In this document: piece by piece, positions 16,981 through 23,513 of the stretch
Layout: each line of letters starts with the position of its first letter
Position numbering within the stretch: position 1 is the stretch's first letter
IMG/VR virus record: IMGVR_UViG_3300010413_000052
Span: 1-50,026 of that record
DNA from: a virus
Taxonomy: Duplodnaviria; Caudoviricetes
Reading direction: 5' to 3' (one strand)
DNA length: 50,026 bases
Notes under the pieces: generated by a model
What the model saw: the letters and a program-made list of their open reading frames with translations, nothing else
What the model was told of the DNA's origin: nothing
Database searches by the model: none
Translations under genes and position numbers: made by a program

Positions 16981-17293
16981 TGCTATATTAGAAAAAATAT
17001 ATGGTGAAAAGGCAATAGATGAGTGTAAATTAGAAACGTTGCGTCTAGATAACGCAAGATTAAGAGAAGAAAACGAAAACCTGAAAGTAAGCTTTAGATC
17101 AGATACAAAGCTACTAAACGAAAAAGAAGATGAAATTTTTAATCTGCATAGTGAAATAGAAATATTAGAACAATATTTAAATGATAAAAATAAAGAAATA
17201 GATTTTTATAAAAAAGAAGCAAGAGAATCAAAACAAGCACTATATAGATTAAAAGAAGAAATAACAACATATTTAAAATCCCTACCAATATGA
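16967..17293 (+). CDS. Coiled-coil hypothetical protein
   Basis: ORF track; heptad pattern. Confidence 0.6.
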   Translation: MNFTDAILEKIYGEKAIDECKLETLRLDNARLREENENLKVSFRSDTKLLNEKEDEIFNLHSEIEILEQYLNDKNKEIDFYKKEARESKQALYRLKEEITTYLKSLPI

Positions 17294-18435
17294 CAAAACC
17301 AAGACTAAAAACCTCAGCAACACAGATTAACGAATTTCTTACTTGTAAACGCCGGTGGGTTGCATCCTATGTATTAGGCATTAAGCAACCACAAACAGAA
17401 GCTATGGCATTTGGTGAAACAGGCCATAAGTATCTTGAAAATTACATGAAATATGGTACACCACCAGACGCAGAAAAGCCCTGGCAATTTACAAAAGAAA
17501 GCAGAATTCGATATCCCGGTTTATCTGCTAAAAAAGCTATTAAACACATACCAAAACCAGGTACAGCAAGGGCAGAACACGGTTTTAGTTTTATAATAAA
17601 TGGTATTGAATTCATAGGATATATCGATCTTGAGTATTTTGATGAACATAAAAACATATATTTGACTGATTATAAATTTGTATCTAGTTATCAAAGTGCT
17701 CTGGATTCAGACAGTCTACAAACAAACGTGCAAGCTACTATTTACGCCGCAAAAGCAATATTTGAATATAAAGTAGAAAATATAAATCTAAAGTGGATTT
17801 ATATACTCTCAACAAAAAACCCGTCTGCGAGAACTATTACATCTGGATTAACTAAAAAACAAACTAGTGATCAACTTAAGAAATTACTAGATATTTGTGA
17901 AGAAATGATTGAGTTGAGAGACAGTATAAAACAAGAAAAATACTCGGACATAGAAATTTTAAATGAAATACAACCGACCATAGAATCATGTTCACGGTAT
18001 GGCGGTTGTTATTATATTAACATGTGTAACCTTACACCCGAACAATTAATGCAAGGAGATTTTAAAGAAATGGATAATGATTTATCAAGTAAATTAAAAG
18101 GACTAGGATTAGATCAATATATAAAAAAAGATACGTCCAAAAAAGATGACCCACCTGAAGTAAAAGGACCGCCACCTTCAAACGGTGGAACTAAAACAAC
18201 TGCTAAAGGGACTATGGATCTGTCTCAATTCATGAAACAGCCAACAGTACACACTGAACAAAAACCTGAAGAAAGGGCACCTGTAGAAGTTGTGCAAACC
18301 ACTATAGTACCGCCGGCGAAACTAAATGCACCAGAACACTACACACAAGAAGTTAAAGAAGTAGTTGCAGACTTATCAGATGAAGATAAGTCAGCTTTTT
18401 TACGGGTTGTAAAGGCCGTTTTAGATCGTATCTAA
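17290..18435 (+). CDS. PD-(D/E)xK exonuclease (Cas4/RecB-like)
   Basis: SATQI..F..C, GETGH, GYIDL, DYK, Q..IY, C..YGGC....C. Confidence 0.85.
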   Translation: MTKPRLKTSATQINEFLTCKRRWVASYVLGIKQPQTEAMAFGETGHKYLENYMKYGTPPDAEKPWQFTKESRIRYPGLSAKKAIKHIPKPGTARAEHGFSFIINGIEFIGYIDLEYFDEHKNIYLTDYKFVSSYQSALDSDSLQTNVQATIYAAKAIFEYKVENINLKWIYILSTKNPSARTITSGLTKKQTSDQLKKLLDICEEMIELRDSIKQEKYSDIEILNEIQPTIESCSRYGGCYYINMCNLTPEQLMQGDFKEMDNDLSSKLKGLGLDQYIKKDTSKKDDPPEVKGPPPSNGGTKTTAKGTMDLSQFMKQPTVHTEQKPEERAPVEVVQTTIVPPAKLNAPEHYTQEVKEVVADLSDEDKSAFLRVVKAVLDRI

Positions 18436-18438
18436 ATT

Positions 18439-20115
18439 GTGGACTACATATCACCAACAAAGGAGTTCATCAGGATCAAAAAATTACCTAGACGTATATT
18501 TGATCCTGAAGACTCCGAATTGTTGGAAATTAAAGATATGCTATCTGCATACTTAAAAACACCAGAAGGCACACAAGACCTACTTCCTATTCAAGCTTTT
18601 GTGTTAAAAGAATTTCACGATTACAAAGGGTTTATAGGTGCAATACCTGTTGGTAAAGGTAAAACCCATATGTTTGCACTTGCGCCATCTGTGATTGACT
18701 GTGAACGACCATTGGGAATAGTACCAGCTAAACACTTAAAAGAGAAAACACCACGGCACTTAAAACAGATAGCGCAACACTGGAAAGTACGATCAGATAT
18801 TCAGTTAATATCATATGAAAAACTTGGTGTTGTATCTGGTAAGGACATATTATTTGATATAAAACCAGACGTTATTCTTTTAGATGAAATGCAGTATGTT
18901 AAAAACCGTAAAGGGGTTGCTAGAACAAAACGATTAGAGAAATATATTAGAGCGCACAGACCAAAAATACTTGGATTAAGTGGAACATTTATAGATCGGT
19001 CATTGACTCAAGGATGGCATATTCTTTATTGGACACATCCTTACCATATGCCACTACCTCGAAAATGGTGGGAATTCAATAGATGGGTTCAGGCCATAGA
19101 AGGTAATCCGCTTTTTACAGATCTTTCACCGGGTGTACTTAACGAATTTTGTAATATGAATGAAGAATTGTCAGATGCAATCGGACGCAGAATTGTTGAA
19201 ACACCCGGAATTGTTGCAATGAACTCGAATGGCGCAAGGTCAAGTCTCACAGTGGAGGCAGTTTTCCCAGATGTACCAGACGAGATAGGCCGCGCAGTAG
19301 CAGAAATGAGAGAGACTTGGGAAACACCAGGAAGTGAACCTTTTGAATTACAGCTCGACTTGTGGCGTCATGCTCGAACTTTAGGAACCGGATATTACAA
19401 TAAGTGGAAAGATCCACCACCAACGGAATGGTTATTTAAGCGTAGAAAATGGTCAAAAATGGCGCGAGAAGTGCTTTACAGATCACGCCTATATGAGACA
19501 CCAAAAGAGATCGCTTTAGCAGCACAGCGAGGTAAATTATCATCCCAGCAGGCCAATATTTACTTTGAGTGGGCTGAAATACGGGATATCTACAAACCGG
19601 TAACGGTGCCAGTATGGATCTCGGATTATCTTATACAGTATTGTTGTAATTGGGTTAAAGAAAATCCACGTGGTCTTGTGTGGTGTGAACTTAAGGCTTT
19701 TTCATATCGACTCGCAAAAGAAGCAAATGTGCCATATTTTTGTCATCTTGGAAAAGATGATAGTGGCATATTTGTTGAGGATTATGGTAAGGGACCGGCC
19801 GTTGTAAGCCCACGAGCAATTCAAGATGGATATAACCTACAGTACAATTGGGATACAAATCTAATCGTCTCTTGTCCACCAAACAATGAGGCAATAGAGC
19901 AGGTTATAGGCCGCACACACAGAGAGTTCCAATCATCTGATGAAGTGAAAGTCCAATTTGTTTTCACTGTAGACGAAACAATTGCTGGTTTTGAGAAAAT
20001 GATCGAAGAAGCAAGAAAGTACAAGAGTATTTTGAACTCAAAACTCCTGTACGCTGACTACATAAATTTGGATATTACTAAACCAATAGGAGTGCAACGT
20101 TATGATAAGAAATAA
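18439..20115 (+). CDS. SF2 (SNF2-like) DNA helicase
   Basis: VGKGKT, LLDEMQ, LSGT, GYNLQ, EQVIGRTHR. Confidence 0.88.
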   Translation: MDYISPTKEFIRIKKLPRRIFDPEDSELLEIKDMLSAYLKTPEGTQDLLPIQAFVLKEFHDYKGFIGAIPVGKGKTHMFALAPSVIDCERPLGIVPAKHLKEKTPRHLKQIAQHWKVRSDIQLISYEKLGVVSGKDILFDIKPDVILLDEMQYVKNRKGVARTKRLEKYIRAHRPKILGLSGTFIDRSLTQGWHILYWTHPYHMPLPRKWWEFNRWVQAIEGNPLFTDLSPGVLNEFCNMNEELSDAIGRRIVETPGIVAMNSNGARSSLTVEAVFPDVPDEIGRAVAEMRETWETPGSEPFELQLDLWRHARTLGTGYYNKWKDPPPTEWLFKRRKWSKMAREVLYRSRLYETPKEIALAAQRGKLSSQQANIYFEWAEIRDIYKPVTVPVWISDYLIQYCCNWVKENPRGLVWCELKAFSYRLAKEANVPYFCHLGKDDSGIFVEDYGKGPAVVSPRAIQDGYNLQYNWDTNLIVSCPPNNEAIEQVIGRTHREFQSSDEVKVQFVFTVDETIAGFEKMIEEARKYKSILNSKLLYADYINLDITKPIGVQRYDKK

Positions 20116-20251
20116 TATAAATAAAATACTAAAAGAATTAGATATACCAAAAAAAGAAATAGAAAAATTAAAAAATAATTTTTTCAAAAATTTCCCACAA
20201 ACAAAAGAATATATCGAATATTTAAATAAAAAAGTAAAAAATGCAGAATAA
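20102..20251 (+). CDS. 49-aa mini-protein resembling PolA fingers helices (not in ORF track)
   Basis: RBS AGGAG at 20088-20092; MIRNNINKILKELDIPKKEIEKLKNNFFKNFPQTKEYIEYLNKKVKNAE*. Confidence 0.6.
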   Translation: MIRNNINKILKELDIPKKEIEKLKNNFFKNFPQTKEYIEYLNKKVKNAE

Positions 20252-20393
20252 CTACCATTATTACTATGAAATAGTTGTACTTGCAGCACTAGCAATAATA
20301 ATTTTTTCGATTCAAGCTTTAACAAAAAGTGTGAATTATTTGGAGGATAAAATTGAATGTATTAATCAAGAAACAACAGGAGTTAATAAATGA
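20241..20393 (+). CDS. Small single-TM protein (not in ORF track)
   Basis: MQNNYHYYYEIVVLAALAIIIFSIQAL...; overlaps the upstream stop. Confidence 0.45.
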   Translation: MQNNYHYYYEIVVLAALAIIIFSIQALTKSVNYLEDKIECINQETTGVNK

Positions 20394-20509
20394 ACTAAAT
20401 AAGAGAATAGAAACTAAAAGTAGAATGATTAGAGTACAAGAAGCAATAATTAATAAACAAGAATTTACAATTAATGAATTATATAAAGAATTATTTGAAA
20501 GGATAAGAA

Positions 20510-20719
20510 ATGGAAATAATAAACAATAAAAAAGATGAATATGTGCGTTTATATGATATGCAACCTACAGCTGTATTTAAAGAAGCTGATGATGTGTTAA
20601 TGAAGTGTGAAATAAAAGTAGGATATTGTAATGTAATATCATTAAAAACTGGTAAATTTCATGATTATGACGCAAATATGAAGTATAAACAAGAAAAAGT
20701 AAAATTAATAATTGAATAA
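20510..20719 (+). CDS. Hypothetical protein
   Basis: ORF track; RBS AAGGA. Confidence 0.6.
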   Translation: MEIINNKKDEYVRLYDMQPTAVFKEADDVLMKCEIKVGYCNVISLKTGKFHDYDANMKYKQEKVKLIIE

Positions 20720-20740
20720 ATAAAAAAAGGATAAGAAAAA

Positions 20741-21243: not shown

Positions 21244-21465
21244 ATGTTATCAGATAGACAAAAAAGACGTAACCTATTACATAAAAGCAAAAAGAAAATA
21301 GACTTTATAATAAAAGTCCATTCACGATCAGAAGTACTAAAAAATTCTGATAAAAAAGCACCAAAAGAAGAAATAAAGAAATTGTTTGTAAAAGAGGCAC
21401 GCCGACTTGTAAAACTAGGTATAGTTCAAATGCCAAAATGTTTAACTTTTAGGGACTTTGAATAA
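21244..21465 (+). CDS. Basic hypothetical protein
   Basis: ORF track; TAATG coupling to the polymerase gene. Confidence 0.6.
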   Translation: MLSDRQKRRNLLHKSKKKIDFIIKVHSRSEVLKNSDKKAPKEEIKKLFVKEARRLVKLGIVQMPKCLTFRDFE

Positions 21466-23513
21466 TGTACACTGTTATAGATACCGAAACCGATCTAATA
21501 GATCGCTCATATACTTACCCTAAAATAAGTTGTTTGACTTATTGTGACGATCAAGATCGGTACGGTATCTATAGCTATAAATGCAACAAGATAGAACAAT
21601 ATATAGGGGATATTCTTGAAAAAGGTGGTCATCTGGTAGCGCATAATGCGGCTTTTGATATGGGAGTTCTATGTGAGAACTACCCCAATCTCTTACCTCT
21701 TATCTTTCAAGCATACGATGAAGACCGAATTCATTGTACAATGATACGGCAAAAAATCCTTGATATTGCACTTGGATATATAACAGCAGATGAAAGTGGT
21801 GAAAAAAACATAGGTTTCTATAAAAACCATTTTGATGGTAAACGATACCTAATAAAATACTCATTAAAGGATCTACATTATCGTCGTACTGGTGAAGAAT
21901 TAGAAAAAGGTCAAGAACGTGTAACCTTTGGTCCTTTACGAGATTTACCCCTTGAACAGTGGCCTAAAAAACATATAGAATATGCTATAAAAGATGCCAT
22001 AGTTACAAAACCTCTTTATGAGGCACAAGCAACACCTAAGCTGGCACATTACCTTGAATGTGAAGGTCTACAAACTCGCGCTTCTTTTTGTCTTGGACTT
22101 ATCACGGCTCACGGTTTACGTACTGATAAAGAATTTGTTGATAAGTTAAGAGAAGAAACAGAACGCGAAATTGCCAAGTACCAACCAAAACTACCACAAG
22201 GTTGGCTAGTTAAAGATGTACTTAAACAGAACCCCGCAAAAGAAAGAGTAATGTGGCATGTAAGAGAAAAAAGTATCTGGCCTAAACTTACAAAGGCCGG
22301 TATAAAAATACAACTTAAAAATGATAAAAAAGGACTTGCAACTGCCCTTGTACATAATGACGAAATAGTAGCTATTACAAGTAGAGTAATAGATAGAAGT
22401 GATGAATTTGTAACCCTAAAACACCTATCCATAGATAAAGAAGCAAGTGAAGATCTCGAAGATGAAGATCTAATAACACGCACAAAGTTTCATTCTGCTA
22501 GAACTGTTTTGAGTAAGACCATACCTGTTTTAGAACAAGGGATAAATCTACCAATACAACCATCATATGAACCTTTATTAGCAACAGGTCGGACTAGCAG
22601 TTATGCAAGACCACCACTTGTTGGTGATAATATTCAAAACCAAAAAAGAAAACCAGGTGTAAGAGAATGTTATATTCCAAGACCAGGAAAAATATTCTGT
22701 GCAATAGATTATGATACAGCTGAGCTTAGGACACTGGCAGAAGTATGTTATCAATGGCTAGGATATTCAACATTAGGTGACAGTATAAACGCTGGTCTTG
22801 ATCCACATCTTGATTTTGCTTCTAATATATTATGCATACTATACGAAGAAGCCTTACAACGCAAAAAACAAAAAGATAAACAAATAAAAGAAGTACGACA
22901 AACCTCAAAAGCTGCAAATTTTGGTTATCCTGGTGGCGCAGGTCCAAGATCATTTCAACAATACGCAAAAGGTTATGGTGTAAAACTCACAGAAGAAGAG
23001 GCACGTAATCTAAAAGAAAAATGGCTTGAAAAATACCCAGAAATGAAAGAGTATTTCAAATATATAAGCCAAAAAATAAAAGCTGGAAATGGTAAATGTC
23101 AAATAAAAGTCCCTATGTCAAACTTTTACCGTGGCGGTTGCCGTTACACAGTGGCCTGTAATACACCATTTCAGAATCTCACAGCAACAGGTGCAAAAGA
23201 TGCAATGTGGGAACTTGTAAAAGCCATGTATTGGTATGGACAAAACGAGATACTTTATGGTGAACGAATTCCCGCATTCATACATGACGAATTTTTATTT
23301 GAATTTAGAGATGAACATCCACACAAGTCAAAAGCTGCAAATGAAGCAACACGTATAATGGTACAGTCCTTTAACAAATATGTTCCACACTGCCCGGTTA
23401 CAGCTGCACCTGTACTCATGAATAGATGGTCAAAAAAAGCAGATGATGTTAAAATAGATGATAAAGGTAATCATATACCATATATTTTTGAAATAAAGGA
23501 TATTTTTAAATGA
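21465..23513 (+). CDS. polA: Family A DNA polymerase with 3'-5' exonuclease
   Basis: ExoI IDTET, ExoII HNAAFD, ExoIII YAIKD; TGRTSS; motif A DYDTAELR; motif B RQTSKAANFG; motif C IHDE. Confidence 0.95.
   Translation: MYTVIDTETDLIDRSYTYPKISCLTYCDDQDRYGIYSYKCNKIEQYIGDILEKGGHLVAHNAAFDMGVLCENYPNLLPLIFQAYDEDRIHCTMIRQKILDIALGYITADESGEKNIGFYKNHFDGKRYLIKYSLKDLHYRRTGEELEKGQERVTFGPLRDLPLEQWPKKHIEYAIKDAIVTKPLYEAQATPKLAHYLECEGLQTRASFCLGLITAHGLRTDKEFVDKLREETEREIAKYQPKLPQGWLVKDVLKQNPAKERVMWHVREKSIWPKLTKAGIKIQLKNDKKGLATALVHNDEIVAITSRVIDRSDEFVTLKHLSIDKEASEDLEDEDLITRTKFHSARTVLSKTIPVLEQGINLPIQPSYEPLLATGRTSSYARPPLVGDNIQNQKRKPGVRECYIPRPGKIFCAIDYDTAELRTLAEVCYQWLGYSTLGDSINAGLDPHLDFASNILCILYEEALQRKKQKDKQIKEVRQTSKAANFGYPGGAGPRSFQQYAKGYGVKLTEEEARNLKEKWLEKYPEMKEYFKYISQKIKAGNGKCQIKVPMSNFYRGGCRYTVACNTPFQNLTATGAKDAMWELVKAMYWYGQNEILYGERIPAFIHDEFLFEFRDEHPHKSKAANEATRIMVQSFNKYVPHCPVTAAPVLMNRWSKKADDVKIDDKGNHIPYIFEIKDIFK

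Follow-up and report, generated by a model that had tools for sequence, protein, structure and literature searches.

The window is the complete IMG/VR virus record IMGVR_UViG_3300010413_000052, with a length of 50026 bases and a CheckV completeness estimate of 100%. A short open reading frame (ORF) of 49 amino acids, hereafter ORF49, lies there between a helicase gene and the gene of a predicted membrane peptide of 50 amino acids (TM50), and resembles a part of the family A DNA polymerase (PolA) that is encoded further downstream on the same strand. A preliminary description of this DNA had placed the ORF at 20102..20251, with the Shine–Dalgarno site AGGAG 9 nucleotides (nt) ahead of its ATG and an overlap with the helicase stop. 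All three were confirmed, the overlap with the 3' end of the helicase gene being 14 nt. The phage lineage is remote from cultured phages: megablast gave zero matches, and the closest GenBank PolA is 25% identical to that of the window. Scans with the helicase and PolA yielded one relative contig only (appearing as L001, L005, L007 and L009, and referred to as L001 below), the helicase orthologue of which is 79–80% identical to that of the window. The features of the locus are collected in Table 1.

The guanine plus cytosine (GC) content is about 0.39 in the helicase gene and falls to 0.137 across the 139 bases 20102–20240, the lowest value of the region; the neighbouring small genes are similarly AT-rich. 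When this stretch was shuffled, its frame of 46 codons stayed open in 92 of 20000 shuffles at the mononucleotide level and in 27 of 5000 at the dinucleotide level (0.46–0.54%), and the open frame is far above the chance expectation for DNA of 14% GC. The sequence ATGCAGAATAA is common to the stop of ORF49 and the ATG of TM50. TM50 has no Shine–Dalgarno site of its own, the sequence ahead of its ATG being aaaaagtaaaaa; the remaining genes of the small-ORF cluster carry GGAGG or AAGGA sites. Promoter-like sites numbered 9, compared with 10.7 expected from shuffles, and none adjoins the 139 bases; terminator-like sites, assessed in the same way, numbered 0. The antisense ORF at 20038..20325 (95 amino acids) is an ordinary by-product of the A-rich coding strand opposite. 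A fusion of the helicase with ORF49 by frameshifting was also considered, but nothing in the data points to it.

The likeness to PolA was assessed with pairwise and profile searches. With BLASTP, residues 15–48 of ORF49 aligned to residues 508–541 of the window PolA (10/34 identical, 22/34 positive, 26.9 bits, pairwise E 2e-5), which reproduces the gapless alignment reported earlier. A six-frame search of the full 50-kb record with ORF49 matched nothing but ORF49 and the PolA stretch just named (E 1.1e-4); in the record of the relative, its PolA was the sole match (E 2.1e-4). The top Pfam match was DNA_pol_A (PF00476; E 0.0014, 18.1 bits), residues 8–47 of ORF49 corresponding to positions 225–264 of the 381 in the profile. 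The top match in PHROGs was phrog_2573 'DNA polymerase' (E 0.002), and those in NCBIfam were the bacterial Pol I models NF004397 (E 0.003) and TIGR00593 (E 0.0093); the profiles of all three libraries are independent of this phage. A genuine PolA fragment (495–545) used as a control was aligned by its residues 506–539 to PF00476 columns 230–263, in the same register, with 13.9 bits. Comparison of the ORF49 cluster with 31 PolA relatives using hhalign gave a probability of 63% and an E value of 6.9e-5.

Two controls were applied to the score itself. A hidden Markov model (HMM) of the 31 PolA relatives gave ORF49 15.2 bits and the reversed sequence -1.2 bits, and 0 of 2000 composition-preserving shuffles attained 15.2 bits (maximum 4.7). 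As a natural control, 1174 six-frame segments of at least 30 amino acids from the window and from L001, L002 and L006 were scored: three PolA genes reached 99–907 bits, ORF49 14.8 and the next segment 3.6, leaving a gap of 11 bits. Weak tblastn matches in phage records (n = 30, E 0.2–10) fell in annotated DNA polymerase genes in 17 cases, in unannotated records in 7 and in hypothetical genes in 6; one more of the 30, H7, falls in a PolA match of the GenBank search. The tblastn matches H5 and H9 were considered as small-ORF relatives and rejected, as they are located within larger hypothetical proteins. The similarity is independent of composition, lies on homologous columns and is top in Pfam, PHROGs, NCBIfam and the clade HMM.

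The PolA stretch in question lies about 16–20 residues after motif B (invariant R478, K482, F486 and G487) and covers what we take to be helices O1, O2 and P of the fingers. Among the residues retained in the alignment are L516 and K517, which the PolA proteins of the window and L001 share, as well as P525, which belongs to the family consensus, and Y530, which hardly varies. W520 and E526, likewise almost invariant, have conservative substitutions in ORF49, to F and Q respectively. Descent of ORF49 from a polA gene appears probable, and the term 'polymerase-derived' used in the preliminary description is upheld to that extent. The donor may belong to the phage's own clade, from which the seven best of the 31 PolA segments by pairwise score all come (26.6–33.5 bits), or may be a bacterial or other phage Pol I, in line with the fit of the N-terminal part of ORF49 to generic Pol I profiles. 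No close donor gene is on record, because no polymerase was found at E 0.001 in a search of 1.84 billion proteins. The nucleotide identity of 65/102 between ORF49 codons 15–48 and polA codons 508–541 (null 33.9 ± 5.2) was discarded as independent evidence, because it follows from the amino-acid similarity and A-rich codons.

The 139 bases were compared with those of relatives. In L001 the helicase stop is directly followed by the TM gene and the cassette is absent, as are the 69- and 73-amino-acid ORFs of the window. Full-length helicase variants in the 90% cluster (n = 5) end in ...RYDKK, as in the window, in four cases and in ...RYAE in one. This last variant, P0040 (95% identical, 557 amino acids, ending in ...QRYAE), is encoded on an 8456-nt contig with variants of TM50 and of the 166-amino-acid ORF and with no ORF49 variant. 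Deletion of 20102–20240 in silico produced a 557-amino-acid helicase ending in ...RYAE and placed the TM50 start 9 nt after AGGAG. In these comparisons the 139 bases act as an exact unit that is either present or absent, located between a ribosome-binding site and the gene it serves. Loss of the cassette cannot be told from gain, because the strain helicase tree is a polytomy in which the 2:2 site patterns (4, 1 and 1) pair the cassette-less strain weakly with a cassette-bearing one.

A search for flanking repeats or transposon-like structure at the cassette gave low-complexity matches only, and among the 1174 segments no further polA-like piece was found in the flanks in any frame, none beyond PolA and ORF49 exceeding 3.6 bits. 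A relic of an earlier polA left in place, as had been suggested, does not fit: the flanks are free of polA debris, the ORF is intact with a Shine–Dalgarno site and the indel is a clean 139 base pairs (bp). The string coding for KNNFF in ORF49 (20171–20185) recurs 123 nt downstream (20294–20308) and matches the first codons of the L001 TM gene (MKNNFF; L001 7671–7690); the first codons of ORF49 are similar to the TM50 start. The recurrence may be a trace of a gene start duplicated at the insertion site, or low complexity only.

Table 1. Features of the helicase–polA region, in window coordinates.
Feature	Position	Strand	Basis and remarks
PD-(D/E)XK nuclease	17290..18435	+	Replication module
SF2-type helicase, 558 amino acids	18439..20115	+	ORF list; weak Pfam DEAD/ResIII/Helicase_C matches
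Shine–Dalgarno site AGGAG	20088..20092	+	Sequence; ATG of ORF49 (20102) 9 nt downstream
ORF49, 49 amino acids, ATG start	20102..20251	+	ORF list
Presence/absence cassette, 139 bp, 13.7% GC	20102..20240	+	Absent in L001; P0040 helicase end
PolA-like segment (ORF49 residues 8–47, PF00476 positions 225–264)	20123..20242	+	Profile and pairwise matches
TM50, predicted membrane peptide, 50 amino acids	20241..20393	+	ORF list; L001 orthologue directly after helicase
58-amino-acid ORF	within 20241..20529, with TM50	+	Conserved beside helicase in L001
69-amino-acid ORF	20510..20719		phrog_6570, E 6.8e-5; absent in L001
73-amino-acid ORF directly before polA	21244..21465		No family match; absent in L001
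166-amino-acid ORF	between small AT-rich ORF cluster and polA	+
PolA with 3'–5' exonuclease, 682 amino acids	21465..23513	+	ORF list, profiles; intact, uninterrupted
polA stretch resembled by ORF49 (codons 508–541)	22986..23087	+	BLASTP, six-frame search
RuvC-like resolvase	after polA	+	Replication module

The distribution of ORF49 was examined in large collections. A near-length search of 5.8 billion proteins returned ORF49 itself only; phmmer over 1.84 billion representatives found no homologue beyond its own cluster, with P0006 as the sole extra match; scans of viral, metagenome and prokaryote contigs gave no further ORF49 locus, and the ESM Atlas gave no usable match. Intact stand-alone homologues in other phages, for which the preliminary description had proposed a search, were thus not found. 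The 90% cluster of ORF49 consists of five variants on seven contigs, 92–96% identical and intact in 5/5, which differ at residues 18, 27, 34 and 48 and in one C-terminus. ORF49 is confined to one species-level cluster and does not form a conserved family of its own.

Within the same strains, protein divergence was 4–8% for ORF49, 5–6.5% for the helicase and 2–5% for PolA; the ratio of nonsynonymous to synonymous substitution rates (dN/dS) of the helicase against L001 was about 0.1 or less, with dS saturated. A neutral peptide of equal age should diverge several-fold more, so the low divergence of ORF49 is a hint that the peptide is under constraint; it would be explained equally well if the cassette had spread recently. 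One ORF49 variant, P0004, on a 3070-nt Logan contig, has a different end and a length of 50 amino acids. The gene after the cassette may differ in this strain, because the contig is without a TM50 variant of the 90% cluster.

We favour, with moderate confidence, the explanation that ORF49 is a strain-variable mini-gene which arose from an isolated, strongly diverged polA fragment and is kept open mainly by passing ribosomes to TM50. What was observed directly is the ORF with its likeness to PolA, the indel, the absence of homologues elsewhere and the arrangement of the signals. The cassette would have been inserted exactly between the Shine–Dalgarno site and the TM50 ATG, so that ORF49 took over the ribosome-binding site of TM50. 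Ribosomes that load at AGGAG would read through all 49 codons and start anew at the ATG of TM50. Since an early stop would lower the expression of TM50, this would be enough to hold the inserted fragment open in its native, stop-free frame. We infer this coupling because ORF49 owns the only good Shine–Dalgarno site, TM50 has none and the stop and start overlap. The peptide itself could not polymerise, because the catalytic motif is absent, and would be dispensable, because strains without the cassette exist.

Several points weigh against this explanation. The similarity is short (about 35–40 residues, 30–39% identity), so polA ancestry is probable rather than proven. ORF49 outscores the genuine PolA fragment on PF00476 (18.1 versus 13.9 bits), which is odd for a decaying piece, and its divergence between strains (4–8%) is no greater than that of the helicase. 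The cassette is absent from the P0040 contig by inference from protein ends, not from DNA. Translation of ORF49 and its coupling to TM50 are read from the layout of the signals.

Some of these points would be expected if ORF49 were a functional, microProtein-like mini-protein, a free O1–O2–P copy binding whatever contacts or senses that PolA surface. Candidate targets are PolA while it folds, a partner in the replisome, or a factor of the host or of a defence system, and the peptide would serve as a regulator, decoy or accessory piece. Such a function is unlikely in our judgement. It would suit the intact frame in all five variants on the seven contigs, a divergence not above that of essential neighbours in a clade where synonymous sites saturate fast, the agreement with PolA on the best-conserved columns of the family and the Pfam score above that of the genuine fragment. 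The fold prediction is also compatible with it: an AlphaFold2 model of ORF49 confidently predicts three helices (residues 2–12, 17–30 and 32–48; mean predicted local distance difference test score, pLDDT, 79.4). Inhibitory fragments and microProteins are moreover an established concept in the abstracts of PMC11831152 and PMC6003976. On the other side stand the lack of homologues outside one 90% cluster (in the 5.8 and 1.84 billion proteins and the three contig collections), the 80% relative and, by inference, the 95% strain that live without ORF49, and the recent cassette spread that accounts equally for the low divergence.

Structural comparison did not discriminate. Foldseek of the ORF49 model against the PDB gave zero matches, and with VIA-align wide the best Z was 4.1, with generic helical rows and Pol I not among the matches listed; a helical model of 49 residues is an uninformative query in both cases. 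A complex prediction of PolA 300–682 with ORF49 gave a score of 0.00, which is no verdict either way. The decoy, mimic or accessory subunit suggested previously is not supported as stated, as homologues occur in one species-level cluster only and close strains are without the cassette; a lack of conserved homologues had been named in the preliminary description as a refuting outcome. A 40-residue fingers piece that has turned into a free-standing, coupled mini-protein, acting as a fragment inhibitor or decoy that tunes PolA or the replisome or blinds a host factor, is rather improbable; in that case selection on the peptide would underlie its low divergence between strains.

It is also doubtful that ORF49 is an ordinary orphan small gene whose PolA likeness reflects chance or convergence of a K/E/N-rich helix–proline–helix peptide, although a number of results agree with this. 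All scores are far under the curated cutoffs (18.1 against 34.3 bits for PF00476; 16.1 and 14.4 against 720 and 600 for the NCBIfam Pol I models), and the adjacent small genes are as AT-rich as ORF49. In an all-against-all BLASTP of the window, ORF49/PolA was the best pair (27.3 bits versus 23.5 for the next), and its E value of 3.8e-4 per query is not significant after correction for 932 small segments. A sequence search of the PDB with ORF49 gave nothing significant, the best match (E 0.2) being an unrelated enzyme; Pol I made up 16 of the 27 listed rows, with E 0.4–8.8. The best match in the 1.84 billion proteins, P0006, is an unrelated 953-amino-acid repeat protein with 28.5 bits per repeat; its six repeats are each like ORF49 residues 10–38, with up to 48% identity. 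P0006 has no PolA signature, and the match was taken as chance. Composition does not explain the likeness, as none of the shuffles attained the profile score, so that the refutation foreseen in the preliminary description (loss of the profile match on composition correction) did not come about. Chance is further opposed by the 11-bit gap to the next of the natural segments, by the agreement of four profile sets (Pfam, PHROGs, NCBIfam, clade HMM) on one top family, at the homologous columns each time, and by the 17 of 30 weak tblastn matches, plus H7, in DNA polymerase genes.

An untranslated stretch, either an AT-rich spacer or a polA pseudogene decayed in place, would account for the lowest GC of the region and for the dispensability in relatives, but is very improbable in view of an open frame seen in only about 0.5% of shuffles, the ideally spaced Shine–Dalgarno site, the start/stop overlaps at both sides, the five intact variants, the flanks without other polA-like pieces in any frame (decayed fragments having been looked for as a sign of a pseudogene) and promoter- and terminator-like sites not above the shuffled expectation.

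ORF49 was compared with four kinds of known system. Its residues 8–47 occupy the same PF00476 columns as residues 506–539 of the phage's own PolA, L, K, P and Y are retained where they are conserved and three helices are predicted, as in family A DNA polymerases. It differs from these in spanning about 40 of the 381 profile positions, in the absence of motifs A, B and C, and in having no exonuclease domain, thumb or palm. By these criteria ORF49 is not a DNA_pol_A member as an enzyme; it appears to be a homologous fragment instead.

The accessory gene cassettes of phages are known as morons or hyperplastic regions. The ORF49 cassette is like them in being present or absent between close relatives, in its deviant base composition and in having its borders at gene starts. 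Unlike them, it lacks its own promoter and terminator, separates a ribosome-binding site from the gene that follows, and carries a piece of a core replication gene.

A further comparison is with polA genes that are split or interrupted by inteins, introns or homing endonucleases near motif B. In the PolA relatives P0020 and P0026, motif B is interrupted by about 330 residues of intein-like sequence, some 25 residues ahead of the segment that ORF49 resembles. Mobile DNA is thus known to target this part of polA. The window polA, in contrast, is whole (682 amino acids), no endonuclease or intron lies beside ORF49, and ORF49 duplicates a part of PolA and complements no missing one. ORF49 is probably a gene-fragment-derived accessory mini-ORF.

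MicroProteins and inhibitory fragments, as described in the abstracts of PMC6003976 and PMC11831152, act by shown interference with complexes in plants, animals and laboratory screens. ORF49 shares with them that it is a small protein that corresponds to a portion of a larger one encoded in the same genome; it would fit the definition in the abstract of PMC6003976 by sequence only. A narrow literature search on phage polymerase fingers found no phage polymerase example of a microProtein or inhibitory fragment and no stand-alone protein of this kind, in line with the preliminary description.

A functional peptide would be, to our knowledge, the first polymerase-derived microProtein of natural origin in a phage, and it would mark a surface of family A polymerases that is recognised by something else. 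If ORF49 is a bridge ORF only, it would be a clean case of a stray gene fragment becoming a new small ORF. It would then also indicate that a fragment inserted between a ribosome-binding site and the gene behind it can be forced to keep an open frame, and that ORFs below the cutoff in AT-rich phage clusters deserve neither dismissal nor over-reading. The reach of either is limited for now, because ORF49 is restricted to one uncultivated lineage.

TM50 is 68% identical to its L001 counterpart, with a dN/dS of about 0.27, and the 58-amino-acid ORF is 43% identical, with a dN/dS of about 0.35. Both are real small genes of unassigned function, because they are conserved beside the helicase in L001. 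Strain variants of the 73-amino-acid ORF before polA are 93% identical. An exact 13-nt direct repeat, AAAGGATAAGAAA, flanks the 69-amino-acid gene on both sides, at 20498–20510 and 20726–20738. Each copy includes the ribosome-binding site of the next gene, which makes this a second small-gene cassette, with borders defined by the repeat. The indel of this gene, with its repeat in the initiation region, indicates that gain or loss of cassettes at gene starts is usual in the cluster, and fits small genes that come and go via recombination at gene starts.

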